Part shown: in pieces, positions 47,864 through 64,000 of the stretch
Layout of the letters: each line of letters opens with the position of its first letter
Position numbering within the stretch: the first letter of the stretch is position 1
Source: Methanomassiliicoccales archaeon
Lineage (GTDB): Archaea > Thermoplasmatota > Thermoplasmata > Methanomassiliicoccales > JACIVX01
Reading direction: 5' to 3'
Assembly: GCA_014361295.1 (NCBI GenBank)
Contig: JACIVX010000001.1
Coordinates: forward strand, 1,522,359-1,586,358
DNA: 64,000 nt
The notes under the pieces: generated by a model
The model's input: the letters and a program-made list of their open reading frames with translations, nothing else
Told to the model about the DNA's origin: nothing
Databases searched by the model: none
Translations under genes and position numbers: made by a program

Positions 47864-47900
47864 GAATTCAATCCTCTGCCTCTGCATGGGGAACGAGGGA

Positions 47901-51224: not shown

Positions 51225-51385
51225 TCTGGCTGTTCGAATTTCGTTTGGAGCTTCAATGAGATTAACTGTTGGTTACGGTTGTCTACCATCTTGGATTAAG
51301 TGCAAGAATACTTGGCATGTTTTAATTTTGGCGAAATATCCGATCGAACTTCGAAATACCAATTGTCTAGAAGAAGACGGAAAAA

Positions 51386-51478
51386 TGGGCTCACCCGGAT
51401 TCGAACCGGGGAACTTCGCCGCTCTCAGTCATCAGATGACATGTGAGGGCGACGTCATAACCACTAGACCATGAGCCC
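51386..51478 (-). tRNA. tRNA-Val(CAC) with a 20-nt intron at 37/38
   Basis: Exons are identical to tRNA-Val(GAC) at 8691..8783 except positions 32 and 34 (loop CTCACA[intron]C). The intron TGTCATCTGATGACTGAGAG forms CTCA/TGAG and GTCA/TGAC helices (BHB-like). Confidence 0.9.
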
Positions 51479-51536
51479 AGAATCCGAAAAAGATCAATCT
51501 TCTATTAATGTTTGACGGTCTGCTTTATGCTGGCCA

Positions 51537-52253
51537 TCATTCAGTAATAACCTGAGTCGCCCTGAACACACCATCGCTAAAGAGCAGAGAGAAGTACCCT
51601 GTCTTATGGTTCGTACTTCTGATCTTAACCGCCCTAATCCTGCGCTGAATGTCAGTCTCGCCAATTTCCTGCAGTTTCAAGCTAATGACGCCATCCGCAA
51701 GATATCCCTCGTCATATTTGTTTTCAAGCATCTTCTCTGGAGAGGTCTCGGATATGAGGAATGAAGTTACACCAAGATTCCTCAGCCATTCGAAGAGATA
51801 GAAGAGCTCTGTACGCCGGTTTTCACCCATCTGGGCAGCCATTTCCAACACATCGAGGGAGTCCACCACAAGTAACTCGTACCCGATGCTCCGTTTGAGG
51901 CTATCCGCATACATTTTGAAGACTTGCAGCCAAGTCCCCTTCGCGCTCAACTGGGTTAGACTTTTCCTGATGAGTCCGAGGTCTAATATATGAATAAACT
52001 CTTTTGCCCTCTCGTCATCCATTCCCATACTTGTCATCTGCTGCATCAGATTGTCTTTCGATTGCTCAAGTGTCATATAGACGCTTTTGATTCCGTTTTG
52101 CAATGCGTTGTGATAAAGGATGCTATAGGCAAGGGAGGACTTCATCGTTCCGGGTGTGCCTGTGATCAAAACAACCTGCCCCTTTGGAATACCTCCCTGA
52201 AGATTCTCATCAAAATTGTGGATGAAAGTCCGGACCCTTTCAATATGCACCAT
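51537..52253 (-). CDS. single-domain KaiC-like/RecA-superfamily ATPase
   Basis: Walker A GTPGTMKSS, TLEQS and Walker B LLVVDSLD. 238 aa. A close paralog of the gene at 53868..54581. Confidence 0.8.
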   Translation of the reverse strand: MVHIERVRTFIHNFDENLQGGIPKGQVVLITGTPGTMKSSLAYSILYHNALQNGIKSVYMTLEQSKDNLMQQMTSMGMDDERAKEFIHILDLGLIRKSLTQLSAKGTWLQVFKMYADSLKRSIGYELLVVDSLDVLEMAAQMGENRRTELFYLFEWLRNLGVTSFLISETSPEKMLENKYDEGYLADGVISLKLQEIGETDIQRRIRAVKIRSTNHKTGYFSLLFSDGVFRATQVITE

Positions 52254-52332
52254 ACTTTTCCATCCCGCAGATAGCGATTACGACATCTGGAATATTTAAT
52301 CTTTCGTCACTATCTCACTCGCATCATTTATT

Positions 52333-53871
52333 TTAAGGGGAATCATGGCTGTTTACAATCGGCACAGATATGTTGAACCGCGACCCGTCATGCGAGAACG
52401 AAAAGAAGCGCGGATCGATGTTCGCGCCTCTCATCTTCATCACCCTTAACCAGCGCTGCATTCGTCCATGATCGAGTTCCTTCATATGGAGTTCGATCAC
52501 CCCATCAGCTAGATAAACCTCGCTCTCCACGTTTTCAAGCAGTGAAGTGATCGGTTTTTCGGAAATTACGAAGACGGTAATGTTTAGCGATTTGAACCAG
52601 TCGAAAAGATCCTTCAAATCCTGCCTTGTGAATTGATAATCAGCTAGCGACTTGAAAGACTCTAGTGAATCGAGCACAAATAGCTGAAAGTCCCATTCCT
52701 TCTTGACATTGCTTACATATCTCATAAGGATACTGCGCCAGTCACCTCTCTCCTTGGCCATCCGCTTGCGTAAATCAATCATATCCACAACCATCAGCCT
52801 GTCTCTCGATTGCTCTCTCGGCATCCCTAATCGTTCCATCTGTCGAATCAGCGATTCTCGGCTTTGTTCAAGTGAAAAATACATGCTGTTAATGTTATCC
52901 AGGACGGCGCAGTTGTGAAGGATCGCATAAGTGAGTGTCGATTTCATCGTGCCTGCCGAGCCGTTAACAAGGACAACACTGCCCTTCGGTATTCCCCCAT
53001 CGAGGGCCGCATCGAGCCTTTCGATATGCGTGCGGATTCTCACGTCGTCAGGCTTTTCTGGAAATCCGGCCCCGATCTGAACGTCGATTTCTTTCTTAAG
53101 CTCATCAATTATTTTACTAACATCCACAGTGCCAGCGACAATTTCTTTCGGCTCTTCGGTAATTCCTTTTTCAGCGGTTTTTGTCTCGCATGTAACCCTC
53201 CTTTCAAAAGAAGCCTCTGCTGCCCTCAGCTGTTGTTCAAGCTGCGAAAGCTTCTCAAACCTCTCTCGTAACTCCTCCTCCACCTGTTTTTTCATTCTGG
53301 CTAGTCCTTCTTCCAGCGCTTTTTGATAATCTTCTCTCAATGCGAGGAGTTTTTCAAATTCCTCTGTGCTGATTCTCATCTTCCTGCCAGAATCCGTCGA
53401 GATCTCGAGTTCCCTCATGCTTTTCTCAAGTTTTTCTGCAAGTGCATCGAGTTCCTTTTCCCTATCCCTTAGCACTTTTTCACGAGCGCGAAGCTCCGCT
53501 TCAAATTCCGTGCACCGCTTCATCGCTTCTTCCAGCGCACGATTATCTTTTTCGAGGGATTCGATCGCCTCCATCAATCGATTCTCTCTTTCCATCAGTT
53601 CCTTTTCCTTTTTGGTGATCTCCTTTTCCTTTTGGATCAACAGCTGCTTTTGTCTTGAAAGTGAAAGATATTCCGACTGTCCGAAGACAACAGGTATCTC
53701 TTCCTCACTGATGACCTTCTCAACAGTCACCGAAATTGGCAAAGTTTCTGATTGCGGCTCGATCGGCTTTAAAATCTCGCCGCATCGATCACATTGGATA
53801 TCATCAGGTTTGATGCCTGCACCGCATCTCGGGCATTCGTAGCGCTTTTTCATTGATTCACCAGGCCTCAT
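52333..53871 (-). CDS. zinc-ribbon + long coiled-coil + KaiC-like ATPase fusion protein
   Basis: N-terminal CPRCGAGIKPDDIQCDRCGE (CxxC-x10-CxxC), then about 200 aa of E/K/R/L-rich heptad-like sequence. The C-terminal ATPase has NGSAGTMKST, SLEQS and LFVLDSLE. ATGA overlap with the upstream gene. Confidence 0.8.
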   Translation of the reverse strand: MRPGESMKKRYECPRCGAGIKPDDIQCDRCGEILKPIEPQSETLPISVTVEKVISEEEIPVVFGQSEYLSLSRQKQLLIQKEKEITKKEKELMERENRLMEAIESLEKDNRALEEAMKRCTEFEAELRAREKVLRDREKELDALAEKLEKSMRELEISTDSGRKMRISTEEFEKLLALREDYQKALEEGLARMKKQVEEELRERFEKLSQLEQQLRAAEASFERRVTCETKTAEKGITEEPKEIVAGTVDVSKIIDELKKEIDVQIGAGFPEKPDDVRIRTHIERLDAALDGGIPKGSVVLVNGSAGTMKSTLTYAILHNCAVLDNINSMYFSLEQSRESLIRQMERLGMPREQSRDRLMVVDMIDLRKRMAKERGDWRSILMRYVSNVKKEWDFQLFVLDSLESFKSLADYQFTRQDLKDLFDWFKSLNITVFVISEKPITSLLENVESEVYLADGVIELHMKELDHGRMQRWLRVMKMRGANIDPRFFSFSHDGSRFNISVPIVNSHDSP

Positions 53872-54581
53872 TCGCTGATGACTTTTGTTACCTGGAATTT
53901 GTTACCGCTAAACAGCAAGGTGTAGTATGAAGGATCGTGATTCGTCTCTCTCATTTTAACGCATCGAATGCGCCTTTGAGTCTCTACATCTCTGACAACT
54001 TGCATTTTCAGGGTGATAACCCCATCAGAGAGATATCCTTCGCCAAATGTACCCTCGAGAATCTTCTCAGGCGAAGCCTCAGAAATCAGGAAAACGGTGG
54101 CGTTGAGTTCCTTCAGCCACTGGAACAAGTAGAAAAGCTCCGTCCTCCTGTTTGATATTTCCGACATCGTTTCAAGCACATCGAGCGAATCGATCGCTAG
54201 CAACTCGTATTTCAGATTTTCGCTCAAATTCTGCAGGTAAGCTTTGAAAACCTGAAGCCACGAACCGGCACCAGAGATTTGTCTTAATTTCTTTCTGATC
54301 AAGCTGAGGTCAAGAACATGCAACTTGTCCTTGACGGGCTCTGTTGGCATTCCCATTTTTTCCATCTGTCGAAGGAGGCTTTCCCGCGATTGCTCCAAGG
54401 TTACGTAAACGCCAGTTTTCCCATTTTCAAGCGCGTGATGATAAAGAATGTAATATGTGAGAGAGGACTTCATGGTTCCAGGGGTGCCAGCAATGAGAAC
54501 AATGTGTCCAGCGGGTATCCCACCCTCCAATATTTTGTCAAATCCGTCGACAAAGGTTCTGATCCTTTCGTTTGAACTCAA
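53868..54581 (-). CDS. single-domain KaiC-like/RecA-superfamily ATPase
   Basis: GTPGTMKSS, TLEQS and LLAIDSLD. 237 aa. First gene of the three-gene set. Confidence 0.8.
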   Translation of the reverse strand: MSSNERIRTFVDGFDKILEGGIPAGHIVLIAGTPGTMKSSLTYYILYHHALENGKTGVYVTLEQSRESLLRQMEKMGMPTEPVKDKLHVLDLSLIRKKLRQISGAGSWLQVFKAYLQNLSENLKYELLAIDSLDVLETMSEISNRRTELFYLFQWLKELNATVFLISEASPEKILEGTFGEGYLSDGVITLKMQVVRDVETQRRIRCVKMRETNHDPSYYTLLFSGNKFQVTKVISE

Positions 54582-54694
54582 TTGAACCCCTCCGAGCCGG
54601 CTCTCCGAACACCGTTCGGGCCGATCTATTTTCTTTCATACAGTGAATGATACTAAAAGATATTGGAACTTAGTATCACTCCTGATAACTCTCT

Positions 54695-55396
54695 TTAAAC
54701 CTCCCCCCTGATGACAACCCTTTTCACGTATGATTTCGCGACCTCGGCCATTTTTCTGATTTTCTCCGTAGAATATGGATTGAGTACCCTCAATCGCTCA
54801 TCAATCGTGTTCTTCGGGCGGAACTGCTGGAGTGCATACTTCTTTGCTCCACCGATGAACGCTGCGATCAATTCAATATCATTCTCATTAAGAAAAATTG
54901 GCACAACGGTCGTTCTGAATTCGTAATCGATCCCAGATTCCATAATCAGGGAGATCGATCTCTTTATCTCTTCGAGCGGTGCTTCGACACCGGAAACGTC
55001 ATTGTATTTATCGTTGAGCGGGGCTTTAATATCCATTGCAATGAAATCGAGAAGTTCGTCTTCAATCAACTCCTTGATCACCTCAGGTCGGCTCCCATTG
55101 GTGTCAAGCTTGATTTTCATTCCCAGACGGCGGAGCCATGTGATCAGTTCTCTCAGATCTTTGTGAATCGTTGGCTCGCCGCCAGTGATAACCACACCGT
55201 CGATAAAATCCTCGTTCGCTCTGATATACGATTCGATTTCCCCCCGAGAAATCTCCTCGAGGCTATCGGGATTGATAACGAGGTCCCTGTTGTGACAGGC
55301 AGGACAACGGAAATTACAGCCTGGAAGATAAATCGTTGAGGCGACGCAACCGTCCCAGTCGATCAACGACGTTTTTGAAAAGCCCACGATTTTCAT
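54695..55396 (-). CDS. radical SAM activase-like protein (NrdG/PflA-type)
   Basis: CNFRCPACHN (CxxxCxxC) near the N-terminus, GVVITGGEPT and 233 aa, typical of glycyl-radical-enzyme activase-like proteins. No NrdD or PFL gene in the window. Confidence 0.7.
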   Translation of the reverse strand: MKIVGFSKTSLIDWDGCVASTIYLPGCNFRCPACHNRDLVINPDSLEEISRGEIESYIRANEDFIDGVVITGGEPTIHKDLRELITWLRRLGMKIKLDTNGSRPEVIKELIEDELLDFIAMDIKAPLNDKYNDVSGVEAPLEEIKRSISLIMESGIDYEFRTTVVPIFLNENDIELIAAFIGGAKKYALQQFRPKNTIDERLRVLNPYSTEKIRKMAEVAKSYVKRVVIRGEV

Positions 55397-55510: not shown

Positions 55511-56704
55511 ATGAAACTCCTGTCGGCCAAAGAGTGCATCGAGCGAAATTTGCGTGGACTGATCGATGGGAAATCGTCACGAATCGCGATTTACACTGGC
55601 GATGGGGCGTCACATTCATGGATTTGGCTCGTTGATTCGCTCGAAAATCTGGGTTATTACAATTTGAAATTTATCCAGAAGGAGGACATTTGTTCGGACA
55701 TCCCAGCGGATGTCCTCTTTATTTCTGGCGGAGATACTTTCGGCCTTGCGAATGCAATTGGATCAACTCGTCTACGCAGTCTGGAAGAATGGATCGTTCG
55801 TGGAGGACAATACATTGGGATCTGCGCCGGTGCCTATCTTCCTCTTCATTCTTCACTCGAGCCATTAAATCATTTCAATCTCGTTAAGGGAAGGATAACG
55901 AATCTAACTAGTAGCCTCGATAGCCGATTTTGTAACGGCGAAAGATTCGTGACGAAGTATGGCTGCTCGTACGTCTTTCAACCGGTGCGCGGACCATTAG
56001 TCGTCGAATGCCTTGGCACCGAGTTCACGGCACCTCTTTACGGTGGACCATGTTGGTATGATGTTTCAGACGCCGAGGTTCTAGCGTATTATCGATCTTT
56101 TACTGAGAAGACGATTTTTCTAGTTCCTGAAGAGATGGCTAGCCAGATCGTCATCGACAAGATTGCAGCATTAAGGAAATCCTATGGTAGAGGTACTCTC
56201 TACCTTTTTGGCCCGCATTTCGAATACCCTGGTAATCCGATGGGCGCCTCGGTGATCGGGAGCGCGATTAATAATGAAGAGGAATTCCGTAATCATCGAT
56301 ATTCTCTATCACAAAATATTGAGGTGGCCGGGATGCAGCCGATTTCAAGAGAACTCCGATCCGTCGTTTCATCGGCTAGGTTAATGTGCCTCGGAATGGG
56401 GGGGATGGAATGGAGAATCGGGAGGAAAATTTGGGACAATGAGCGTTTTGGCTACTTTCTTGATGGTGTATGGAAGCGATTGAGAAAAGCAACGGAAATC
56501 GATCTGCGAATTGAACAGCAGAATAAATTAATTGAAAGATTCAAGGAATGTATCTCTTTGATGCGCCAGATGAGGATAGAACGAGGAGGTACTCAAGGCA
56601 TGATGACCGCCGAGCAACTTCTGAGGGCTCTTTCATCTTCGTCTGCACAGTTCTTCAATTGCTATTTCGCATCGTTAAGACATCATTTAATAAAAAAAGG
56701 CTAA
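55511..56704 (+). CDS. class I glutamine-amidotransferase-like (BPL_N-like) domain protein with helical C-terminal domain
   Basis: RIAIYTGDGASHSW...DVLFISGGDTFG...GGQYIGICAGAYLP resembles the BPL_N/GATase1-like nucleophile-elbow pattern. The C-terminal ~170 aa are unassigned. Lies 108 nt upstream of hdrA on the same strand. Confidence 0.5.
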   Translation: MKLLSAKECIERNLRGLIDGKSSRIAIYTGDGASHSWIWLVDSLENLGYYNLKFIQKEDICSDIPADVLFISGGDTFGLANAIGSTRLRSLEEWIVRGGQYIGICAGAYLPLHSSLEPLNHFNLVKGRITNLTSSLDSRFCNGERFVTKYGCSYVFQPVRGPLVVECLGTEFTAPLYGGPCWYDVSDAEVLAYYRSFTEKTIFLVPEEMASQIVIDKIAALRKSYGRGTLYLFGPHFEYPGNPMGASVIGSAINNEEEFRNHRYSLSQNIEVAGMQPISRELRSVVSSARLMCLGMGGMEWRIGRKIWDNERFGYFLDGVWKRLRKATEIDLRIEQQNKLIERFKECISLMRQMRIERGGTQGMMTAEQLLRALSSSSAQFFNCYFASLRHHLIKKG

Positions 56705-56812
56705 AGGGACACATTGGGCTCAGTTGAAATCTATCATTTGATGGTGATCTCATTCGAATCAAAAAATTTTTCATCGATCGGCGCCTAACACGAGAGGTCG
56801 CGGGGTGCTGAT

Positions 56813-59794
56813 TTGTCGGGTAAACCAGTCGCGGTCATCGGGGGTGGCATTTCCGGCGTTCAGGCCGCACTTGATGTCGCGAATGCTGGGGTACGAGTGT
56901 TGTTGATCGAAAAAGGTCCTGCACTCGGCGGTCATATGGCCAAACTCGACAAAACTTTCCCAACGAACGACTGTTCCGCCTGCATTCTTTCTCCGAAATT
57001 GGTCGAGGCGAGCAGACATCCGCTGATTACAATCATGACGATGTCGGAGGTGATCGCCTTAGATGGTGAAGCACCAAATTTTAAATTGACGATACGCAAA
57101 GCGCCTCGATATGTGCGTGAGGATCGATGCGTGGCATGCGGGATCTGTGCAGAAAAATGTCCCGTAAAAGTACCAAATGAATTCGACGAAGGTCTTGGCG
57201 AAAGAAAGGCGATTTATCTTCCTTACCCACAGGCCGTCCCCTTCAAGTACCTTATTGATTCGTCGCACTGTCTCTTCTTAAACAAAGAGAGATGTGGCGT
57301 TTGCAGTAAAGTTTGTCCTGCAAATGCGGTCGATTTTGATGCGAAGCCGGTGACTGAGGTGCTGGAGGTCTCATCAATCATTGTTGCTGCTGGTTTTGAG
57401 CTCTTAAACCCTTGCAAGCTTCTTCCTTTGCAAGGCTTACAACATCCCCGCATACTCACGTCGCTTGAGTTCGAACGTCTTCTTAGCGCATCGGGGCCGA
57501 CGGGCGGGAAATTGATCATCCCGCGGATAAACACGGCGCCGAAACGCATTGTTTTCGCCCAATGTGTCGGCTCGAGGGATTCGAGATTTCGCCCTTATTG
57601 CTCAAGATTTTGCTGTATGACCTCCATTAAACAGGGACTTGTTGCGCTCGAGCACGAACCGTCGATCGAGGACATCTGGATTTGCCATATGGGTCTTCGA
57701 ACTTACGGTAAGGGATTTGATCGCTATCTGGCAAGGGCAAGAAAAGAGGGCATCAAATTCGTTAAGGGAAAGGTTGCGGAGATTCTGGAAGATGGCGAGA
57801 GGCTTCAAGTCAGAGTCGAGGATGTGAGAACTGGAATGATTGAGTTACTTGAGGCCGACATGGTCGTCCTCGCCATCGCAGCATCTCCGCCAAAGGGACT
57901 TTCAGATCTCGCGAAGGTCCTTGGCATCAAAATCGCCAGGGACGGCTTTATCGCAACCGAGAAACCGTTTTCTGTCAAAACGACAAGGGAAGGCATTTTC
58001 GCGGCGGGATGTTGCACAGGTCCGAAGGATATCTCAGACAGTGTCGCCACAGCGTCTGCTGCTGCATCCCATGCCCTTATGGTCTCACAAGAATTAAGGA
58101 AGTTGGAGAGCGGAACAGCGGAAAAAAGTATCGCTGGAGAAAAGAAAATCGAATCTCCGAAATCAGAAGAATCTAGAATTGGCGTCTTCGTCTGCAGATG
58201 CGGCACAAATATCGCGTCAGTCGTTGATATCGGGAAAGTCGTTGAAGCTGTGAGGAGAATCCCTGGCGTTGTATATGTTGGTGAGCATCTTTTCATGTGT
58301 TCTGACAGCGCTTTGACGATGCTGTCAGAAATGATTCGGCAGGAGAGGCTCAACAGAATCGTCGTCGCGTCATGCACACCACGGACGCATGAATCGCTGT
58401 TCCGCGCGACGATCGAAAAAGGCGGGCTTAATCCATACCTTTTCGAAATGGTCAATATCAGGGAACACTGCGCGTGGGTTCATCGGTATGAACGCGACCA
58501 GGCGACGAGAAAAGCGATCGCGTTGATCAAGGCTGCGATTGCTAAGGCATCGCTGCTTGAGCCGCTGGAGCCTGGTGCAATCGAAGTGACAAATCGGGCG
58601 CTGATCGTTGGGGGAGGACCCGCTGGTCTGAAGGCCGCATCGGATCTCCTGCGGCAGGGATTCGACGTAGTGATTGTGGAAAAATCCAACAAACTCGGCG
58701 GTTCACTACTTTCGATCGAAAATCTCGATATCGATTTTGACGATAGCGAAGCGCTTCGAGCGCTTCTTTCACTGGTCGATGAAGAGAGGCTCACGGTATG
58801 GACGAACTGTACCATTAAGGCAGTTAACGGTGCGGTCGGTGATTTCAGCATCGTCCTATCTAATGGCGCTGAGATTCACGCCGGTGTGATCATTCTGGCG
58901 CCTGGTGCATCACTTCGATGCAATGGCCAGAAAATCATCAGGGATTCAATCACAAGTGTGGAACTCGATCAAAAAATTAAACAGAATGATGTACTCCCAG
59001 AACATATCACATTCATCCAATGTCTCGGTGCAAGAAATGAAAAACGCGGTTGCTCGAGATTCTGTTGTTATAAAACTCTGCTCCAAGCAATCGAATTACG
59101 TAGGCAGGGAAAGGAAGTCAACATTTTATACACCGACCTTATGTTTTACGAACGGGGCGCGGAGGAATTATATTATGAGGCATGCCTCGAAGGCGTGCGC
59201 TTTTTTGAATATGACAAGATCATTGAGTTTCAAAATAACCGTCTCGTTTTTAACTCCGTTCTTGACGGGCTGATTTCATTGGAAACGGATCTCGTTGTTG
59301 AAGTTGATATTCTTGTCCCCGGTGATTCGATCGCGGATCTCCGCACAATTTTGAAGGTTCCGACAGACGAAGAGGGATTTTTTCTGGAAAAACATCCAAA
59401 ACTCGCTCCAGTTGAATTTGCAACCGAAGGAATCTTCGTTGCCGGTTGTGCCCAATACCCGAAGAATCTCGGCGAAGCGATGATCCAGGGTTCCGCGGTC
59501 GCGGCGAAAGCCGCTGCCATACTCTCGAAAAAGAAAATTCTGACGTCTCCGATGATCTGTGTTGTAGATGAGAATAGATGCAGGGGATGTGGTGAGTGCG
59601 AAGCAATCTGCAAATTCGGGGCCGCCCGACTGATCACCGAAGGGTCGATTAGAAAATCAAAAATCAACGGGACGATTTGCAAAGGCTGTGGCACATGCGC
59701 AGCTTCCTGCCCCACCAACGCAATTGATGTCAAGGGTTTTTCGCACGATCATATGAAAAGGATGATCACCGCATTGCTAGGAGGATGCGAATGA
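56813..59794 (+). CDS. hdrA: HdrA-like flavoprotein, enlarged (two FAD/TrxR-like modules, 993 aa)
   Basis: Module 1: VAVIGGGISGVQAALD, DCSACILSP, an inserted 2x CxxCxxCxxxCP and CVGSRD...YCSRFCC. Then an HdrA N-domain-like segment (VFVCRCGTNIA...NIREHCAWVH). Module 2: LIVGGGPAGLKAA and CLGARNE..GCSRFCC, with a C-terminal 2x[4Fe-4S] ferredoxin. Confidence 0.8.
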   Translation: MSGKPVAVIGGGISGVQAALDVANAGVRVLLIEKGPALGGHMAKLDKTFPTNDCSACILSPKLVEASRHPLITIMTMSEVIALDGEAPNFKLTIRKAPRYVREDRCVACGICAEKCPVKVPNEFDEGLGERKAIYLPYPQAVPFKYLIDSSHCLFLNKERCGVCSKVCPANAVDFDAKPVTEVLEVSSIIVAAGFELLNPCKLLPLQGLQHPRILTSLEFERLLSASGPTGGKLIIPRINTAPKRIVFAQCVGSRDSRFRPYCSRFCCMTSIKQGLVALEHEPSIEDIWICHMGLRTYGKGFDRYLARARKEGIKFVKGKVAEILEDGERLQVRVEDVRTGMIELLEADMVVLAIAASPPKGLSDLAKVLGIKIARDGFIATEKPFSVKTTREGIFAAGCCTGPKDISDSVATASAAASHALMVSQELRKLESGTAEKSIAGEKKIESPKSEESRIGVFVCRCGTNIASVVDIGKVVEAVRRIPGVVYVGEHLFMCSDSALTMLSEMIRQERLNRIVVASCTPRTHESLFRATIEKGGLNPYLFEMVNIREHCAWVHRYERDQATRKAIALIKAAIAKASLLEPLEPGAIEVTNRALIVGGGPAGLKAASDLLRQGFDVVIVEKSNKLGGSLLSIENLDIDFDDSEALRALLSLVDEERLTVWTNCTIKAVNGAVGDFSIVLSNGAEIHAGVIILAPGASLRCNGQKIIRDSITSVELDQKIKQNDVLPEHITFIQCLGARNEKRGCSRFCCYKTLLQAIELRRQGKEVNILYTDLMFYERGAEELYYEACLEGVRFFEYDKIIEFQNNRLVFNSVLDGLISLETDLVVEVDILVPGDSIADLRTILKVPTDEEGFFLEKHPKLAPVEFATEGIFVAGCAQYPKNLGEAMIQGSAVAAKAAAILSKKKILTSPMICVVDENRCRGCGECEAICKFGAARLITEGSIRKSKINGTICKGCGTCAASCPTNAIDVKGFSHDHMKRMITALLGGCE

Positions 59795-60213
59795 CCTGGC
59801 TTCCAAAAATCATCGCATTCTGCTGCAATTGGTGCGCGTATGCGGGTGCGGACACAGCAGGTCTGTCGAGATTTCAATATCCTCCGAGTATCAGCATCCT
59901 CCGCGTCATGTGCACAGGTCGGATTGAACCGTCAATGATTCTCAAGTGCTTTGAGCAAGGTGCCGATGGTGTCATGGTTCTGGGATGTCATCCAGGTGAT
60001 TGTCATTACATTTCTGGCAATGAATGCGCAAGAAGCAGAATTGAAACGACCTTGGAGATTATGGAGATTCTTGGCATTGATAAAAGAAGGCTGTTATTGA
60101 AATGGATATCTGCATCTGAAGGTGCTCTTTTTGCTGAGACAGCAAAGGATTTCACAGAGACGATACGATCGCTCGGTCCTTTCAGGGGTGAATCTCAAGA
60201 TGATCAGAGATAA
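59791..60213 (+). CDS. mvhD: MvhD-type [2Fe-2S] protein (F420-non-reducing hydrogenase delta-subunit family)
   Basis: IIAFCCNWCAYAGADTAG...ILRVMCTGRIEP...GADGVMVLGCHPGDCHY. ATGA overlap with the hdrA stop. Confidence 0.85.
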   Translation: MTWLPKIIAFCCNWCAYAGADTAGLSRFQYPPSISILRVMCTGRIEPSMILKCFEQGADGVMVLGCHPGDCHYISGNECARSRIETTLEIMEILGIDKRRLLLKWISASEGALFAETAKDFTETIRSLGPFRGESQDDQR

Positions 60214-61381
60214 AATTGAAGAATATGGGATAAGACAATGTATCGATTGCGGAAAGTGTTCGTGGGCTTGTCCAGTATCCCACCGCCAAAACGATTTTTC
60301 GCCGCGAACGGTCGTTGAACATCTCCTGCTTTACGATGAGCATCTGTCAAGCAGAGAGATGTGGGATTGCGTCACGTGCGGGACATGTAGTGCTCTCTGT
60401 AACTCTCGTGTTAAATTCCATGAAATCATGAGAACGATCAGAAAACTGTCTGTCGAGCGCGCATCGCCGATGATGACCCACGGTGATACATTCGACCTCA
60501 TCGCACGCCTTTCTTCAAAGCCTTATCTCCACCCAAAAACATCGAGCTGGTTGACTTCTGATTTAAGGATAAGCAAAAACTCGAAAGTATTGTTATTCGT
60601 CGGCTGCACGCCTTATTTAAATATCATTTTCAAACACCTCAATATCGATTTCCTTCAAATCCCGAGAGCTGCGGTGAAGCTCCTTAATGCGATGGGAATC
60701 GAGCCGAATGTCTTGGAGTCGGAAAGGTGTTGTGGACACGATCAGTACTGGCTTGGGGATGACGAGTTATTTCTCCAGCTCGCCGAATTGAATTTGAAAG
60801 CGATTGGATCATCAGGCGCAGAAGAGGTCATCGCATTCTGCCCAGAGTGTTACTCGACGCTCAAGTTCGTTTATCCTCAGTTCTTCGGTCCGCTCGATTT
60901 CGAGGTCAAGAATCTGACCGCGATGATGGGCGACGCAGTTGCTGGCGGAATTCTCACTTTGAAGAAAGATAACACTTTGTCGACAACTTTTCACGATCCT
61001 TGCAGGTTAGCTAAGCATTCAAATATTATCGACGAACCGAGAAAGATCTTGCACTCGATCAGCAATTTTTTCGAAATGCCAAGGTCTGGGCATACCAGTG
61101 TGTGTTGCGGCGTCGCATCTTGGGTGAACTGTGACTCATGGACAAAATATTGGCAGCTTGAGAGAATTGAGGAGGCGAGAGCAACCGGAGCCGGAACACT
61201 CGTTACGGCCTGCCCGAAATGTCTAGCGCATCTTTCTTGCGCTCAGTATGAAAAGAACAACTATGACGAATCCTATCGCTTTGACATCGTTGATATCCAC
61301 GTGCTTGCGGCCTCCCGGATGTCGTCAAACGAGCGAGGTAAAGCGGAGCTGCAAGACTCAAAGCGAGAAAAGTTGAATTAG
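60200..61381 (+). CDS. HdrD-like Fe-S oxidoreductase (HdrC-type 2x[4Fe-4S] N-terminus + two HdrB-type CCG domains)
   Basis: CIDCGKCSWACP and CVTCGTCSALC; CCG motifs ERCCGHD with CPEC, and SVCCGVAS with CPKC. Start at Met27 of the track ORF (14-nt overlap with mvhD). Confidence 0.75.
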   Translation: MIRDKIEEYGIRQCIDCGKCSWACPVSHRQNDFSPRTVVEHLLLYDEHLSSREMWDCVTCGTCSALCNSRVKFHEIMRTIRKLSVERASPMMTHGDTFDLIARLSSKPYLHPKTSSWLTSDLRISKNSKVLLFVGCTPYLNIIFKHLNIDFLQIPRAAVKLLNAMGIEPNVLESERCCGHDQYWLGDDELFLQLAELNLKAIGSSGAEEVIAFCPECYSTLKFVYPQFFGPLDFEVKNLTAMMGDAVAGGILTLKKDNTLSTTFHDPCRLAKHSNIIDEPRKILHSISNFFEMPRSGHTSVCCGVASWVNCDSWTKYWQLERIEEARATGAGTLVTACPKCLAHLSCAQYEKNNYDESYRFDIVDIHVLAASRMSSNERGKAELQDSKREKLN

Positions 61382-61549
61382 ATTGGAATTCTCTCTCGAC
61401 TTTGATATTATGATGCCTAGGGGCTCTTTGTTCTCTCGCGCGTTGCGAGAATCGCCTTCAGCATTTGAGGCTTGGTCTTCAATAACTCTGAACATCAGAG
61501 TGTTGGTTCGTGAAGGTAAATCTCGGAGGTATGAATAGAGGGAAAAGTA

Positions 61550-64000
61550 ATGATCGGTCTCTTCATCTGTCATTGCGGAACAAATATCGCCGGTGTTGTT
61601 GACATAGAATCGCTGAAGAAACATTTCTCCTCCGAGAACACCTACGTGGTGGATCATCTTTTTCTTTGCTCGAAAGCTGGCCAGGAGATGATTATCAACG
61701 CAGCGAGGGAAAATCATCTCGAGAGGGTCGTCATCGCCGCCTGTTCGCCAAAGCATCACGGCGAGATTTTCAGGGAATGTGTTGGTCAGGTCATCAACCC
61801 CTATCTCTGGGAAATGGTCAATATCAGAGAACAATGCGCTTGGACAACGAGTGATCGAAGTCTTGCGACTGAGAAAGCGAAAGCGCTCATCCACGGTGCA
61901 ATTAAAAGGGTGAAATTTCATGAGCCGATTGCCTCCATCAGAGTGCCTCTTAAAAGGAGCGTCGCTGTGATTGGAGCGGGCATCGCGGGGATTCATGCGG
62001 CCCTCGAACTCGCGGATAAGGGCATCGATGTTGAGCTCATCGAAAAGGAACCTGTCATCGGCGGGAATATGGTTAAACTTAACCGCACTTTTCCAACGGA
62101 CGACTGCGCGATGTGTACGATCTCGCCGATTTTAAACAGGGTGTTGGCGCATCGAAAAATCAGATTGTGGACGATGACAGATGTGGAGGAGGTGCGCGGT
62201 CGGCCTGGTGAGTATCGTATTCGATTGAAAAAGAGAGCGAGATTCGTCGATTACGACAGGTGCACGGGCTGTGGCAACTGTTCGAAAGGAAATCTTGAAG
62301 CCAGGTGGCCTCCCATCACGGAACCGTATATGGTTGATCGAATTCGCATCGACCTCGAAAAATGCACCGGTTGCGGCGCTTGTGTGAAAAAATGCAGGAC
62401 GTATGCGCTCATCCAACCAGCACCGAAGGAAAAACCGAAGTATGATACCTTGAAATGTGTCGGATGCTGGGATTGCGTCAGAGCGTGTCGGTTTGGCGCC
62501 ATATCAATCATCAATGTCTGTCCTGTGGTCATTCCAAATGAATTCGATTTTGGTCTTGGTTTGAGAAAAGCAATTTACATACCGAATGCCCAATCCGTCC
62601 CTTTGAAGTATCTGCGCGACGCGGATCACTGCCTGAGATTGAAGGGATTGATGGACTGCAGGGGTTGCATCGAGGTCTGCGGACCCGGGGCAATTCTCGA
62701 TGAGGATACGGAACAGGTTTTTGAAATCACTGTAGGGGCGGTCATTGTTGCAACGGGATACAGGGAGTATGATCTGAGCGGGAGCGAGTACCGAACCGAA
62801 CATCCAAATGTCATCACGGGGTTGCAACTCGAGCGAATGCTGAGTCCCGCGGGACCGACGCAGGGCAAGTTGGTGAAGCCCAGCGATGGAACGGCGCCAA
62901 AGAGTGTGACGTTCGTACAATGCGCTGGATCGAGGGATATGAAACGAAGAGAGTACTGCTCGAAAATCTGTTGCATGTATGCGGTGAAGAATGCGAGCCT
63001 CATTAAGAGAGATCATCCCGAAATCGACGTGAAAGTCTGCTACATCGATCTTCGAGCTTCTGGCAGAGGATATGAGGAATACTTCGACAGAGCGAGGGAG
63101 ATCGGTGTTGAGTTTATACGTGGGAACGTTGGCGAGATCGTTCCAATCGGCCATCAGCTGGTCGTCAAGTGTGAAGATACCTTCCTCGGTCGGCCACGTG
63201 AGATCGTTAGTGATCTCGTTGTGCTTTCAGTTGCAATGGAACCCTCTGAAGGTACGCAGCAGATTGCGAAGATCGCTTCGCTGGTCACAGGGAAGGATGG
63301 TTTTATCGCGCCAGTTCACGTGAAAATCGCACCTGTTGACACCGCACTGTCTGGTATTTTCGTTTGTGGAACAGCCGAAGCCCCGAAGCCGATACAGGAA
63401 TGCATCACTGACGCTGGCACCGCTGCATCTCGAACTTCAAGCTTCCTAAAGGAAGATGAACTTATCGTTGATCTGATCACCGCGGTAATCGACCAGGCGC
63501 GTTGCATCCGGTGTGGAAAGTGTGCTGAGATATGTTCATATGACGCCATCAAAAAGGATGAAGGCAAATACGAAGTGATCGAAATTGCGTGCAAGGCATG
63601 CGGCAAATGTGCAGCGGACTGCCCTTCAAACGCGATCGACCTCAGATTCAACAACGATCTTCAACTGGAATCTGCAGCTGCCGGCATCATTGAATACGAT
63701 ATCGATTCGATCATCGCCTACGCATGCGAACAATGTGGATATAATGCGGCGGATCTCGCGGGTGCGGCAAAGTATCATTATTCGACAGCAATCAAAGTCG
63801 TTAAGGTGCCGTGCAGCGGAAGGATCTCGCTCGCGCAAATGTTACTTCCTTTTGAATATGGTGCGAAAGGTGTCATGATCGCCGCGTGTCTCGATGGTCA
63901 ATGTCACTTCATCGATGGAAATAGACACGCGGCTAAGAGGGTGGAGATGGCAAAGAGAGCGCTCGATTTTATGGGTATTGGCAGCCACCGACTTCAATTT
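61550..64000 (+). CDS. hdrA: HdrA::MvhD fusion protein, C-terminally truncated by window edge
   Basis: Not in the ORF track (no stop before 64000). My hand translation from ATG 61550 reads MIGLFICHCGTNIAGVVD...NIREQCAWTT...VAVIGAGIAGIHAALE...DCAMCTISP...several CxxCxxC ferredoxin motifs...CAGSRD..YCSKICC...GIFVCGTA..., ending in an MvhD-like IIAYACEQCGYNAADLAG...VPCSGRIS...AACLDGQCHF. At least 817 codons. Confidence 0.8.
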   Translation, partial: MIGLFICHCGTNIAGVVDIESLKKHFSSENTYVVDHLFLCSKAGQEMIINAARENHLERVVIAACSPKHHGEIFRECVGQVINPYLWEMVNIREQCAWTTSDRSLATEKAKALIHGAIKRVKFHEPIASIRVPLKRSVAVIGAGIAGIHAALELADKGIDVELIEKEPVIGGNMVKLNRTFPTDDCAMCTISPILNRVLAHRKIRLWTMTDVEEVRGRPGEYRIRLKKRARFVDYDRCTGCGNCSKGNLEARWPPITEPYMVDRIRIDLEKCTGCGACVKKCRTYALIQPAPKEKPKYDTLKCVGCWDCVRACRFGAISIINVCPVVIPNEFDFGLGLRKAIYIPNAQSVPLKYLRDADHCLRLKGLMDCRGCIEVCGPGAILDEDTEQVFEITVGAVIVATGYREYDLSGSEYRTEHPNVITGLQLERMLSPAGPTQGKLVKPSDGTAPKSVTFVQCAGSRDMKRREYCSKICCMYAVKNASLIKRDHPEIDVKVCYIDLRASGRGYEEYFDRAREIGVEFIRGNVGEIVPIGHQLVVKCEDTFLGRPREIVSDLVVLSVAMEPSEGTQQIAKIASLVTGKDGFIAPVHVKIAPVDTALSGIFVCGTAEAPKPIQECITDAGTAASRTSSFLKEDELIVDLITAVIDQARCIRCGKCAEICSYDAIKKDEGKYEVIEIACKACGKCAADCPSNAIDLRFNNDLQLESAAAGIIEYDIDSIIAYACEQCGYNAADLAGAAKYHYSTAIKVVKVPCSGRISLAQMLLPFEYGAKGVMIAACLDGQCHFIDGNRHAAKRVEMAKRALDFMGIGSHRLQF

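Follow-up and report, generated by a model that had tools for sequence, protein, structure and literature searches.

A ten-gene cluster of a Methanomassiliicoccales archaeon that most likely encodes two soluble HdrA-type electron-bifurcation cores

Introduction

Borrel et al. (2014, PMC4153887) reported that the normal HdrA of the order Methanomassiliicoccales is long and has two FAD sites, and fused two-FAD forms have also been described in Moorella (PMC5861303), in ANME archaea (PMC9012536) and in Asgard and TACK archaea (PMC11237513). One fused two-FAD HdrA, BamE, has been solved structurally as part of the BamDEF module of the class II benzoyl-CoA reductase of Geobacter metallireducens, and the cryo-EM preprint on this module (bioRxiv 10.64898/2026.04.10.717634) was our functional template. 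Among characterised proteins, BamD is the closest relative of the HdrD-like subunit described below; it does not reduce a disulfide and passes electrons to an electron-transferring flavoprotein (10.64898/2026.04.10.717634). In ANME archaea, HdrD-like as well as FdhAB/FrhB-like proteins accompany fused and tandem HdrA paralogues (Chadwick et al. 2022, PMC9012536). Another arrangement, an HdrA fused to MvhD, belongs to the Methanosarcina acetivorans HdrA2B2C2, which is F420H2-dependent according to the summary of Yan et al. 2017 in PMC5861303.

The locus analyzed here carries a fused double-flavin HdrA of this known type. The initial annotation counted it among the features of an atypical cluster, which was overstated for a protein that is normal in the order (PMC4153887). 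Its partners are what is unusual: a hydrogenase is missing, and additional disulfide-reductase-like subunits and an amidotransferase-like protein are present. The cluster most likely represents two soluble HdrA-type flavin-based electron-bifurcation cores with disulfide-type exits. Two bifurcating cores at a site conserved across Methanomassiliicoccales-related archaea are, on balance, a fairly probable explanation of the whole.

Results

The window, i.e., the whole stretch of 64,000 nucleotides that was analyzed, ends inside a ten-gene cluster of about 12.7 kb. The first half of the cluster was read in the window (55511-64000) as five co-oriented + strand genes, whose positions and motifs agreed with the initial annotation:

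55511..56704, + strand: GATase1-fold/BPL_N-like protein, 397 aa (Pfam BPL_N, E = 5.9e-12)
56813..59794, + strand: BamE-type fused HdrA, 993 aa, whose single chain holds two thioredoxin-reductase-like (TrxR) FAD modules
59791..60213, + strand: MvhD, 140 aa, [2Fe-2S] adaptor subunit (Pfam FlpD, E = 3.7e-52)
60200..61381, + strand: HdrD-like protein, 393 aa (Pfam Fer4_8 and two CCG domains)
61550..64000, + strand: HdrA::MvhD fusion, 842 aa in full on a near-identical contig, its last 26 codons lying beyond the window

The ATG of mvhD overlaps the HdrA stop codon as ATGA, the last 14 nt of mvhD are shared with the HdrD-like gene, and a gap of 168 nt (61382-61549) precedes the HdrA::MvhD gene. Just past base 64000, as read on the near-identical 368-kb contig, follow a gene for a 635-aa tandem HdrD-like protein with four CCG domains and two hdrC-hdrB pairs, HdrC1-HdrB1 and HdrC2-HdrB2. 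No mvhAG, fdh, mcr or separate hdrB/hdrC genes were found inside the 64-kb window; for hdrB/hdrC the reason is the window edge, since both pairs lie just beyond it. The earlier statement that separate hdrB and hdrC are missing thus holds up to the edge and fails past it. Likewise, of the canonical mvhAG/hdrBC set that it named as evidence against its reading if found directly downstream, hdrCB-like genes are there and mvhAG is not. Hydrogenase, formate dehydrogenase and FrhB genes were absent within 10 kb downstream on the near-identical contig, and no electron-donor module was detected in the readable 55 kb upstream or 10 kb downstream, which extends the absence of donor genes already noticed in the window. 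None of the Hdr proteins of the cluster reached the curated NCBIfam cut-offs:

HdrB1: 321.5 (cut-off 345)
HdrC1: 135 (cut-off 160)
HdrB2: 219 (cut-off 345)
HdrC2: 91 (cut-off 160)
Fused HdrA: 871 (cut-off 1100)
HdrA::MvhD: 852 bits (cut-off 1100; best model, HdrA2)

Comparison of the site among related archaea revealed constant and variable parts. The identical ten-gene order was found at 84% identity in one locus (L088) and a matching order at 58% identity in another (L094), as far as its contig reaches. Four loci (L090-L093; 50-58% identity) have only the core I genes, described below, and HdrC2B2. One (L161) lacks the fused HdrA but has core II as well as MvhD and the HdrD-like gene, and in a Methanomassiliicoccus sp. 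MAG (L177) the locus holds MvhD and the HdrD-like gene together with HdrC and HdrB, but no HdrA at all. The site constantly keeps HdrC-HdrB and the MvhD/HdrD-like pair, whereas the presence of the GATase-like gene, the fused HdrA and the HdrA::MvhD block varies. This pattern indicates two separable cores and, besides them, a conserved pair of MvhD and HdrD-like genes, found with one HdrA, with the other or without any HdrA in the locus. The HdrA/MvhD-type electron-bifurcation modules recognized in the initial annotation are supported, while its single bifurcating/confurcating complex is disfavoured by the comparative data.

An unlikely explanation, but one that deserves weight, is that these genes serve the ordinary H2-dependent heterodisulfide reductase of Methanomassiliicoccales. 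Fused HdrA and HdrBC would work with MvhAG encoded elsewhere to pass electrons from H2 to CoM-S-S-CoB and ferredoxin, and the HdrD-like protein would be the 'HdrD' of the order, acting with an Fpo-like complex. The long two-FAD HdrA and HdrD homologues without HdrE that are reported for the order (Borrel et al. 2014, PMC4153887), the hdrCB-like genes directly downstream and the synteny with the mvhD, HdrD-like, hdrC, hdrB locus of the Methanomassiliicoccus sp. MAG all fit this explanation. So do another Methanomassiliicoccales locus (L010) in which the fused HdrA is followed by mvhD-mvhG-mvhA (Pfam-confirmed) and three loci (L011, L020, L024) with MvhG/MvhA by BLAST labelling. However, in a neighbour-joining (distance) tree with bootstrap, not a maximum-likelihood one, the fused HdrA of the window lineage grouped with HdrD-linked copies of another Thermoplasmata archaeon, Planctomycetota and Holophagae (98/100). 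This clade, widened by one hydrogenase-linked Natronoplasma copy (L013) and Asgard copies (100/100), lay apart from BamE and from the clade of Mvh-linked Methanomassiliicoccales copies. Moreover, the mvhGA position is taken by the HdrD-like gene, translationally coupled to mvhD, the readable 55 kb upstream and 10 kb downstream hold no mvhAG, and the HdrB and HdrC proteins miss their curated cut-offs.

The HdrD-like protein has two [4Fe-4S] motifs and two CCG domains with all ten cysteines, and belongs to a subfamily with the motif CCGVASWVNC. It has Cys214 where BamD has Ser. The second cysteine of its first CxxC is Gly in four loci (L091-L093, L042), and therefore the distal cluster is not strictly conserved. 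Its best NCBIfam match was TfrB (124.6 bits vs. a cut-off of 385), a subunit of the CoM/CoB-dependent fumarate reductase, a thiol-oxidising enzyme. This match would suit a rather improbable alternative in which the HdrD-like protein stands behind MvhD instead of MvhGA and feeds in electrons from the oxidation of a dithiol or another reduced substrate; HdrC2B2 (or HdrC1B1) would then be the high-potential exit, or the assembly would be a confurcating thiol/ferredoxin oxidase. The order HdrA, MvhD, HdrD-like mirrors HdrA, MvhD, MvhG, MvhA, the overlapping MvhD/HdrD-like pair is invariant at the site even without HdrA in the locus, and a separate HdrC-HdrB pair is always nearby. Against such an input stand the Asgard loci, where the HdrD-like subfamily lies upstream of the fused HdrA (the BamD position), FrhB-like genes are the obvious donors and HdrBC are absent, as well as the role of BamD as an exit module (10.64898/2026.04.10.717634). 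A thiol would presumably also be a thermodynamically poor donor for ferredoxin reduction.

The fused HdrA was mapped against M. wolfeii HdrA (PDB 5ODC_A), and its domain order is permuted:

56813..58102, + strand: module A (residues 1-430), TrxR1 FAD domain with an inserted 2x[4Fe-4S] ferredoxin domain at about 95-180
58166..58582, + strand: HdrA N-terminal-type Fe-S domain (residues 452-590) between the flavin modules (alignment, domain E = 1.9e-49)
58583..59557, + strand: module B (residues 591-915), TrxR2 FAD domain with the cluster motif at 737-752
59558..59791, + strand: C-terminal 2x[4Fe-4S] ferredoxin domain (residues 916-993; Pfam Fer4_9 at 922-971)

Residues 8-378 align with M. wolfeii HdrA 148-516 (TrxR domain and inserted ferredoxin domain), 452-618 with 2-168 (the N-terminal domain, here in mid-protein) and 854-979 with 515-640 (TrxR end and C-terminal ferredoxin domain). 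The glycine motifs are GGGISG (10-15) and GGGPAG (600-605), and the cluster motifs are CVGSRDSRFRPYCSRFCC (251-268) and CLGARNEKRGCSRFCC (737-752). Module A, which has no N-terminal domain of its own, contains the first cluster motif, Cys54/Cys57, aligned to HdrA Cys194/Cys197 and BamE Cys59/Cys62, and Lys273, aligned to HdrA Lys409 and BamE Lys280. The lysine and both cysteines are invariant in 18 full-length homologues. Module B has neither an inserted ferredoxin domain nor a CxxC pair and has Leu757 at the HdrA flavin-lysine position. A redox role for its flavin is possible, with Lys754 of the window lineage aligned to BamE Gln768. The C-terminal ferredoxin domain would be the expected entry point for electrons from MvhD, because of the BamE and HdrA structures.

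The 993-aa protein is genuine. It is matched over its full length (about 99% coverage) by homologues of 960-1040 aa, and it also aligns with BamE from end to end. That two neighbouring hdrA genes were joined in assembly, as the initial annotation had considered, or in annotation has nothing but the unusual length of the protein in its favour and can practically be dismissed, given these homologue lengths, the uninterrupted reading frame, the recurrence of the architecture in independent assemblies (98, 90, 84, 58 and 53% identity) and dozens of phyla, and a part order (flavin module, N-domain, flavin module, C-terminal ferredoxin) unlike a head-to-tail join of two complete hdrA genes.

The HdrA::MvhD protein is collinear with 5ODC_A residues 6-644. 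Behind its N-terminal domain comes a TrxR domain that has the CxxC pair as well as the flavin lysine, and its C-terminal part holds a ferredoxin domain and an MvhD domain (the latter at residues 720-835, from about nt 63698). Its inserted ferredoxin domain is enlarged by a 76-residue two-cluster insert (residues 247-322, nt 62288-62515). The gene is translationally coupled to those of the 635-aa tandem HdrD-like protein and HdrC1-HdrB1.

The GATase-like protein has a C-terminal helical domain. Its AlphaFold2 model has a mean pLDDT of 90, and the best PDB folds were class I glutamine amidotransferases (2a9v, 2abw, 1kxj). Cys105, His236 and Glu238, a predicted triad, are invariant in a 24-sequence alignment. 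Members of the family lie upstream of an HdrD/DsrK-type CCG protein in 28 of 30 unrelated metagenome loci. Because of this neighbourhood evidence for the whole family, the gene probably belongs to the cluster, as was initially suspected, as an accessory of HdrD-type chemistry rather than a chance neighbour.

Discussion

Gene content, domain order, conserved residues, synteny and phylogenetic placement were observed directly; from them we infer the direction of electron flow, the docking of subunits and all substrates, for core I by homology with the solved BamDEF module and HdrABC-MvhADG. Core I would consist of the BamE-type fused HdrA, the short MvhD and the HdrD-like subunit. The FAD that would bifurcate the electrons sits in the first flavin module, where Lys273 and Cys54/Cys57 are retained. 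The high-potential electron would leave through the [4Fe-4S] cluster of this module to the HdrD-like subunit, a candidate receiver with two cubane clusters and two non-cubane cluster sites, and the low-potential electron would reach ferredoxin by way of the cluster in the central N-domain and the inserted ferredoxin domain. With neither the lysine nor the cysteine pair nor an inserted ferredoxin domain, the second flavin module probably does not bifurcate but has a structural role, standing in for the second subunit of an HdrA homodimer. Core II would be formed by an HdrA of ordinary layout with the extra two-cluster insert and fused MvhD, the tandem HdrD-like protein and HdrC1-HdrB1. HdrC2-HdrB2 is a second pair and one of the constant parts of the site.

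Disulfide-type substrates are the most likely acceptors; should the organism be a methanogen, the HdrB proteins could plausibly act on CoM-S-S-CoB. The HdrD-like subfamily is also found in Asgard archaea and Planctomycetota, groups that are not known to make CoM or CoB. This argues against CoM-S-S-CoB as its substrate, and a different acceptor is likely. As no donor module was found in the readable flanks, the donor would have to be encoded elsewhere (e.g., MvhAG) or be a soluble cofactor, and the gene content does not distinguish bifurcation from confurcation.

Among the known systems, BamDEF shares with the two-core arrangement proposed here the permuted domain order of BamE (about 37% identity over residues 6-987 with the protein of Geobacter sp. 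locus L070), a first flavin module with the flavin lysine and the cysteine pair, and adjoining genes for an HdrD-like partner and an MvhD-type adaptor. Locus L070 has the order AOR-like (654 aa), 176 aa, HdrD-like (383 aa) and fused HdrA (1037 aa), i.e., BamBCDE. In contrast, the window cluster has no genes for BamBC (tungsten AOR) or BamGHI (NuoEFG-like), its MvhD is short (140 aa) with Cys whereas BamF is long and contains selenocysteine, and its HdrD-like protein keeps the cysteine that is Ser in BamD and has CCGVASWVNC instead of CCGGGGG. The gene order also differs (HdrA, MvhD, HdrD-like vs. BamD, BamE, BamF), and the fused HdrA falls in a different, well-supported clade.

The Methanomassiliicoccales MvhADG-HdrABC (PMC4153887) comes from the same order of archaea and has the same long two-FAD HdrA type, mvhD directly after hdrA, and hdrC-hdrB pairs; the window site is syntenic with the Methanomassiliicoccus mvhD, HdrD-like, hdrC, hdrB genes. 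Unlike it, the window has an HdrD-like gene in place of mvhG and mvhA, a fused HdrA of another clade, and in addition the HdrA::MvhD core, the tandem HdrD-like protein and the GATase-like gene. The second HdrA resembles that of M. acetivorans HdrA2B2C2 in being an HdrA::MvhD followed by HdrC and HdrB, with HdrA2 as its best NCBIfam model, although its 852 bits lie under the cut-off of 1100, its inserted ferredoxin domain has the extra two-cluster insert, and the 635-aa tandem HdrD-like protein stands between it and HdrCB.

ANME HdrA clusters (PMC9012536) likewise contain several paralogues of HdrA, lack MvhAG and occasionally include HdrD-like proteins. As in the ANME fused HdrA, the N-terminal domain and Cys197 are lost complementarily between the halves, which implies a built-in heterodimer. 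However, the half with the N-terminal domain comes first in the description given in that paper, whereas the half with the cysteine pair comes first in the window, where FdhAB and FrhB genes are absent. Finally, DsrMK, HdrED, Hmc and Tmc-type membrane modules combine a NarI-like cytochrome b with an HdrD/DsrK-like CCG protein. The GATase-like family lies directly upstream of such modules in bacteria, and a CCG-domain catalytic subunit is common to both, but the window cluster has no membrane subunit and its CCG proteins are found with soluble HdrA and MvhD.

Gene content of the cluster

Examination of the ORF list, the translations, Pfam and NCBIfam bore out the five co-oriented hdr-type genes that the initial annotation had described at the 3′ end of the window.

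Hdr-type genes inside the window
55511-56704, plus strand: GATase-like protein, 397 aa (ORF list; Pfam BPL_N, E = 5.9e-12)
56813-59794, plus strand: fused HdrA, 993 aa (ORF list; HdrA-type NCBIfam models)
59791-60213, plus strand: MvhD, 140 aa (FlpD/MvhD, E = 3.7e-52)
60200-61381, plus strand: HdrD-like protein, 393 aa (Fer4_8 and two CCG stretches)
from 61550, past the window end, plus strand: HdrA::MvhD fusion (ORF list; HdrA-type models)

The ATG of mvhD shares the tetranucleotide ATGA with the TGA of the fused hdrA gene, the HdrD-like gene overlaps the end of mvhD by 14 nt, and a gap of 168 nt separates it from the HdrA::MvhD gene. HdrA-type NCBIfam models matched both HdrAs at 650-870 bits, all below the NCBI curated cut-offs. 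The fused HdrA scored 870.8 of the required 1100 bits with NF041778, 651.4 of 1400 with NF041891 and 648 of 1300 with NF040770, and HdrA::MvhD scored 852 bits against a cut-off of 1100, so that neither protein reached an equivalog. As had been noted from the sequence alone, no mvhA/G or other hydrogenase gene, formate dehydrogenase gene or mcr gene was found within the window.

The downstream part of the cluster was read from L001, a near-identical 368-kb contig that was retrieved by an exact-sequence look-up of the HdrD-like protein and extends 10 kb downstream. The overlap that was read contains one amino-acid difference, and therefore the window and L001 are two very close strains or assemblies and not one record. 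This difference lies at about window position 63930 (residue ~794 of HdrA::MvhD), where the window has His and L001, a Logan contig, has Asp. In L001 the full HdrA::MvhD is 842 aa long and is followed, in overlapping or abutting frames, by a 635-aa protein, HdrC1 (160 aa) and HdrB1 (334 aa). Downstream of HdrB1 there are two small minus-strand genes, then HdrC2 (162 aa), HdrB2 (275 aa) and nadC on the minus strand. The statement that separate hdrB and hdrC genes are lacking thus holds inside the window and fails beyond position 64000, where the HdrC1-HdrB1 and HdrC2-HdrB2 pairs are found. No hydrogenase, Fdh or FrhB gene was found in the 10 kb downstream of the window, and no Mcr or CoM/CoB biosynthesis genes in the window and its 10-kb flanks. 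The donor and the acceptor are neither encoded nor recognisable at the locus.

The rest of the window carries archaeal housekeeping genes, including those for fibrillarin, Nop, eIF-5A, SMC/ScpAB, LSM, KaiC-like ATPases and an anaerobic radical-SAM activase-like protein. Two tandem genes on the minus strand, 44969-46435 and 46436-47887, encode fusions of a DHDPS-family aldolase to Fae (488 and 483 aa; Pfam DHDPS E = 1e-70 to 1e-76, Fae E = 1e-28 to 1e-37), and at least one such fusion gene is also present in L088, a relative at 84% identity. The Fae domain points to methanopterin-linked C1 chemistry, which has been reported absent from cultured Methanomassiliicoccales. ARAGORN detected a 95-nt tRNA at 51385-51479, minus strand, with an unassignable anticodon ('ca'), which may be an archaeal tRNA with an intron; a spurious 85-aa ORF, 51217-51474, overlaps with it.

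Architecture of the fused HdrA

Alignment of the fused HdrA with 5ODC_A, the sequence of the Methanothermobacter wolfeii HdrA structure, showed that residues 8-378 correspond to 148-516 (the TrxR domain with the inserted ferredoxin domain), residues 452-618 to 2-168 (the N-terminal Fe-S domain, which here lies in the middle of the protein) and residues 854-979 to 515-640 (the end of the flavin domain plus the ferredoxin domain at the C terminus). The second flavin half, module B (approximately 591-915), contains a dinucleotide motif and the cluster motif C737 ... C747-x3-C751-C752 and has no inserted ferredoxin domain. This mapping confirms the earlier reading of two dinucleotide-binding modules with cluster regions that flank a segment like the HdrA N-domain. 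The resulting order in the single chain, TrxR1 with inserted ferredoxin, N-domain, TrxR2 and C-terminal ferredoxin, is collinear with that of BamE, the fused HdrA of class II benzoyl-CoA reductase, and a match to the Geobacter BamE of locus L070 covers residues 6-987.

That the 993-aa protein could be an assembly fusion of two hdrA genes had been raised by the initial annotation. This is ruled out by the domain order on 5ODC_A, by the occurrence of the protein across GTDB and by full-length relatives with the same architecture in independent MAGs: the closest database proteins are 960-1040 aa long, with ~99% query coverage, and come from Methanomassiliicoccales/Thermoplasmata MAGs at 98, 90, 84, 58 and 53% identity.

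Both modules, as well as the 842-aa protein, have the TrxR FAD domain and its adjacent [4Fe-4S] motif (C-x-G-x-R ... C-S-x-x-C-C), whose residues are invariant in alignment A1. Module A, the first flavin half, keeps Cys54/Cys57 (Cys194/Cys197 of HdrA) and Lys273 (Lys409 of HdrA), the latter five residues past the CC pair and aligned with residue 280 of a Geobacter sp. BamE. Module B has no CxxC pair, and Leu757 aligns with the flavin-lysine position. Since the cysteine pair and the lysine are found in module A and neither is found in module B, the fused HdrA is an asymmetric 'heterodimer' within one chain, its two HdrA halves complementing each other. Within residues 754-757 (window 59072-59083) and at the aligned positions of L010, L024, L070 and L084, module B varies by clade where HdrA has the flavin lysine: BamE has Lys there, as do Methanosarcina and the Asgard copies, the Mvh-linked Methanomassiliicoccales have Arg, and the clade of the window has Leu, Glu or His. 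Gln768 of BamE aligns with Lys754 in the window lineage. The second flavin may be redox-active in some clades.

HdrD-like, HdrA::MvhD and HdrC/HdrB proteins

The 393-aa HdrD-like protein contains two [4Fe-4S] motifs (Cys14/17/20/24 and Cys57/60/63/67) and two complete CCG domains (Cys136/177/178/214/217 and Cys268/302/303/338/341) in which all ten cysteines are kept. In an alignment of 21 sequences, the position of Cys214 (FCPEC in the window) was occupied by Ser in all nine sequences of the clade of BamD, the HdrD-like subunit of class II benzoyl-CoA reductase, which agrees with the modified distal cluster reported in a preprint (10.64898/2026.04.10.717634). The subfamily of the window protein, found in Thermoplasmata, Asgard archaea and Planctomycetota, is marked by CCG-x3-W-x-N-C and by the additional conserved Cys311 and Cys347, and Gly replaces Cys217 in four members (L091-L093 and L042). 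Methanomassiliicoccus sp. MAGs contain homologues at 43-44% identity, and the family goes by the name 'heterodisulfide reductase subunit D' in some sources. CoM-S-S-CoB is unproven as the substrate of this subunit, because the subfamily is common to organisms not known to make CoM/CoB and because BamD donates to a flavoprotein and not to a disulfide. The locus has no NarI/HdrE-like gene, that is, no HdrE partner cytochrome b.

HdrA::MvhD is collinear with 5ODC_A; residues 247-322 form an additional two-cluster insert, and an MvhD domain lies at the C terminus. Because the N-terminal domain is retained together with the cysteine pair and the flavin lysine (TDDCAMC ... CCMYAVK), the protein resembles an ordinary HdrA of the homodimer type. 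The 635-aa protein consists of two HdrD-like halves in tandem, each with a single [4Fe-4S] motif and a complete pair of CCG domains, for a total of 20 CCG cysteines. Its first half shares 33% identity and the motif CCGVSAWVNC with the 393-aa protein, and its second half has the usual CCGGGGG. When tested with TIGR03288/TIGR03290, HdrB1 and HdrB2 scored 321.5 and 218.9 (cut-off 345.15) and HdrC1 and HdrC2 scored 135.4 and 91.2 (cut-off 160); none reached the cut-off, with HdrB1 and HdrC1 close to it and HdrB2 and HdrC2 far short of it. Curated NCBIfam cut-offs assigned no Hdr protein of the cluster to an equivalog.

Occurrence and phylogeny of the fused HdrA

When one genome per GTDB species was scanned, the full-length architecture turned up in Desulfobacterota, Geobacter, Syntrophorhabdus, Chloroflexota, Planctomycetota, Asgard archaea, Bathyarchaeia and a Methanosarcina. 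Partner genes, labelled by ORF and BLAST with Pfam checks, were MvhG/MvhA in Methanomassiliicoccales (L010, L011, L020, L024) and Natronoplasma (L013), FdhB/FdhA-like proteins in Methanosarcina sp. DH2 (L021), FrhB-like and HdrD-like proteins in Asgard-type loci (L008, L016), and BamBCD (tungsten-AOR-like, small ferredoxin and HdrD-like), e.g., in Geobacter L070, where the proteins are 654, 176, 383 and 1037 aa long. This shows that the fused HdrA and MvhD form a portable core joined to differing partners.

The fused HdrA itself is already known; what is new is the partner set and the GATase link. The Methanomassiliicoccales HdrA has been described as longer, with two FAD sites, and adjoining mvhDGA (Borrel et al. 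2014, PMC4153887), and the HdrA of the Moorella MetFV-HdrABC-MvhD complex binds two FAD (PMC5861303). In ANME, HdrAs that are fused or in tandem show complementary loss of domains and occasionally have HdrD-like partners (Chadwick et al. 2022, PMC9012536), and HdrA-HdrA fusions are common in Asgard and TACK archaea (2024 survey, PMC11237513). BamE has been solved as a fused HdrA dimer in which only the first flavin (Lys280) bifurcates and the second is structural, with BamD as the high-potential exit and the MvhD-like BamF as the entry adaptor (2026 preprint, 10.64898/2026.04.10.717634).

A neighbour-joining tree (a distance method only) was built from 62 full-length fused HdrAs with 100 bootstraps. 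The window lineage is monophyletic (bootstrap 100) and groups with L042 (a Thermoplasmata archaeon), L029 and L032 (Planctomycetota) and L041 (a Holophagae MAG) at bootstrap 98. An HdrD-like gene lies downstream of the fused HdrA gene in all four of these, and a second HdrA gene is adjacent in L042, L029 and L032. The clade is enlarged by Natronoplasma L013, where mvhDGA follows (bootstrap 93), and by three Asgard-type loci with the HdrD-like gene upstream (bootstrap 100). The Mvh-linked Methanomassiliicoccales HdrAs form a separate clade (bootstrap 78), and BamE is separate again. By this placement, the fused HdrA of the window is not the hydrogenase-linked HdrA of the order; it is a paralogue or a transferred copy, and its HdrD-like partner defines it. 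The same placement speaks against the main alternative, that the cluster is the ordinary H2-dependent heterodisulfide reductase of an order in which HdrA does adjoin mvhDGA, with Mvh encoded elsewhere; we consider this rather unlikely.

In L042 (885-3533) and L032 (86-1937), 2-oxoacid:ferredoxin oxidoreductase genes lie directly upstream of the cassette of fused HdrA, HdrD-like and second HdrA genes. The Thermoplasmata MAG has the alpha, beta and gamma subunits and the Planctomycetaceae MAG has beta and gamma, its contig beginning there. This hints that the low-potential branch may be wired to ferredoxin-dependent carbon metabolism in these organisms. No such genes were found beside the window cluster.

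Variation of the site among relatives

The flanks of the cluster are kept in all relatives examined and the content between them differs. The downstream flank consists of nadC and a beta-CASP nuclease gene. The upstream flank (window 51537-55396, minus strand) consists of three KaiC/RecA-like ATPase genes (238, 512 and 237 aa) and a radical-SAM activase-like gene (233 aa). This KaiC/radical-SAM block is present in every relative with enough upstream sequence, and the Methanomassiliicoccus sp. MAG shows two KaiC-like genes.

The ten-gene order is identical in L088 (84% identity), is the same up to the contig end in L094 (58%), and is represented by its first five genes in the shorter L099. Four relatives at 50-58% identity (L090-L093) have the fused HdrA, MvhD, HdrD-like and HdrC-HdrB genes and lack both the GATase-like gene and the second HdrA block. 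A metagenome contig with the same upstream flank (L161, 5962-13062) carries the GATase-like, MvhD, HdrD-like, HdrA::MvhD and tandem HdrD-like genes without the fused HdrA; therefore, the MvhD/HdrD-like pair is able to sit with either HdrA type. The Methanomassiliicoccus sp. MAG (L177) has only MvhD, HdrD-like and HdrC-HdrB genes, with no HdrA at the site. Neighbouring accession numbers suggest that this is the counterpart of the mvhD3 ... hdrC2-hdrB2 neighbourhood of M. luminyensis (Borrel et al., PMC4153887). This gene content identifies the overlapping MvhD/HdrD-like pair and one HdrC-HdrB pair as the constant elements, and the two HdrA genes are interchangeable additions.

Insertion of the second HdrA block as an unrelated element was considered and is weakened by the recurrence of the order elsewhere: fused HdrA, HdrD-like and second HdrA follow one another in L042 (Thermoplasmata), L029 and L032 (Planctomycetota). 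ORFs like the second HdrA also flank the HdrD-like/fused-HdrA pair in three Asgard loci.

The GATase-like protein

The AlphaFold2 model of the GATase-like protein (mean pLDDT 90) has a helical C-terminal domain after the GATase fold. In Foldseek searches its first ~250 residues matched class I glutamine amidotransferases, namely, GMP synthase subunit A (GuaA), Pdx2 and HisH, at target-normalised TM scores of 0.60-0.71. Cys105 (in Y-I-G-x-C-A-G-A-Y-L), His236 and Glu238 are invariant in an alignment of 24 homologues at 35-74% identity. The modelled protein thus has the class I glutamine amidotransferase fold, with a nucleophile-elbow Cys and a His-x-Glu pair; a glutaminase or amidotransferase activity is putative.

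Among the relatives examined, the GATase-like gene occurs exactly where the second HdrA block occurs, and it is absent from the four relatives with a conserved core (L090-L093). Two distant homologues (L095 and L096) lie directly upstream of membrane modules of NarI-like cytochrome b and HdrD-like protein. A metagenome scan for the family recovered at least 80 loci, and 30 of these, which form 19 clusters at 70% identity, extend 4 kb or more downstream. A CCG protein is encoded downstream on the same strand in 28 of these 30, almost always preceded by a NarI-like gene, and an AOR-N-domain-like ORF lies immediately upstream of the GATase-like gene in 33 of the 53 loci with enough upstream sequence. 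The gene is probably not a chance neighbour, because it co-varies with the second HdrA block and because the family is linked to CCG proteins; its inclusion in the cluster, advanced tentatively by the initial annotation, is supported on both counts.

The conserved bacterial operon (L095 7001-10477, L096 5323-12793 and ~28 more loci among L097-L176) contains genes for a small ferredoxin, an AOR-N-domain-like protein, the GATase-like protein, in some cases a multihaem cytochrome c and a cytochrome b, a NarI-like cytochrome b and an HdrD/DsrK-like CCG protein. An NMT1-type ABC transporter (Pfam NMT1/NMT1_2), of the sulfonate/nitrate-type family, comes next in the two Pfam-annotated loci, L095 and L096. 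A literature search found nothing linking BPL_N/GATase-like proteins with Hdr/Dsr, nor was a description of the bacterial operon found in the searchable literature. The GATase link is the most original point of this analysis.

Proposed function

HdrA-based electron bifurcation is a route to low-potential ferredoxin in many strict anaerobes. Apart from the complexes with hydrogenase, formate dehydrogenase or benzoyl-CoA reductase, few HdrA clusters have a known donor and acceptor. The locus probably encodes two HdrA-type bifurcation cores, one (fused HdrA, MvhD and HdrD-like protein) like BamDEF and the other (HdrA::MvhD, tandem HdrD-like protein and HdrC1-HdrB1) like an MvhD-fused HdrABC with additional CCG modules. 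In the first core, electron pairs would bifurcate at the Lys273 flavin; the high-potential electron would exit via the HdrD-like subunit, and the low-potential electron would reach ferredoxin by way of the N-domain cluster and the inserted ferredoxin domain. That the HdrD-like protein is instead an electron-input module is improbable; BamD, its counterpart in the BamE complex, is the exit.

We propose, tentatively, that the GATase-fold protein, with its predicted Cys-His-Glu triad, is an unrecognised and widespread partner of HdrD/DsrK-type CCG iron-sulfur reductases. These would be the membrane NarI-like/HdrD-like modules in bacteria and, here, the soluble HdrA/MvhD/HdrD-like proteins, where the gene is gained and lost with the second HdrA core. 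The protein could make, unmask or recycle their thiol/disulfide (or amide-linked) substrate, in which case the bifurcating reductase of the cluster would act on a new redox carrier and not on CoM-S-S-CoB.

The locus shows the BamE-type fused HdrA as a portable core, and at this one Methanomassiliicoccales site the fused HdrA and the second HdrA core come and go around a constant MvhD/HdrD-like pair. A GATase-fold protein tied to HdrD/DsrK-type subunits in many unrelated genomes provides a concrete handle on the reductase substrate. If the lineage is a methanogen, the energy model of the seventh methanogen order would gain, through this cluster, a heterodisulfide reductase route that is independent of hydrogenase.

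Comparison with known systems

Membership in class II benzoyl-CoA reductase (BamBCDEFGHI) was rejected, since the BamBC and BamGHI genes are missing (neither the window nor the 10 kb downstream showed an AOR or NuoEFG-like ORF) and the HdrD-like protein belongs to a different subfamily. BamD has Ser where the window protein has Cys214, and BamF is a long selenocysteine protein, whereas the 140-aa MvhD of the window has Cys. In the Methanomassiliicoccales MvhADG-HdrABC system, hdrA is followed by mvhD-mvhG-mvhA, an order found in L010 and L013 by Pfam and in L020 by BLAST labelling; in the window, mvhD is instead followed by the HdrD-like gene. The HdrA of that system falls in the Mvh-linked clade, whereas the fused HdrA of the window groups with the HdrD-linked copies (98-100 of 100 bootstraps, neighbour-joining). 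With HdrD of the HdrDE type, the HdrD-like protein shares two [4Fe-4S] motifs and two complete CCG domains, although the HdrE partner is absent at the locus. The TrxR FAD/[4Fe-4S] features of the M. wolfeii-type HdrA are present in both modules of the fused HdrA and in HdrA::MvhD, and its flavin lysine and cysteine pair are found in module A and HdrA::MvhD but not in module B. With BamE, the fused HdrA shares the entire single-chain domain order, and the two proteins are collinear.
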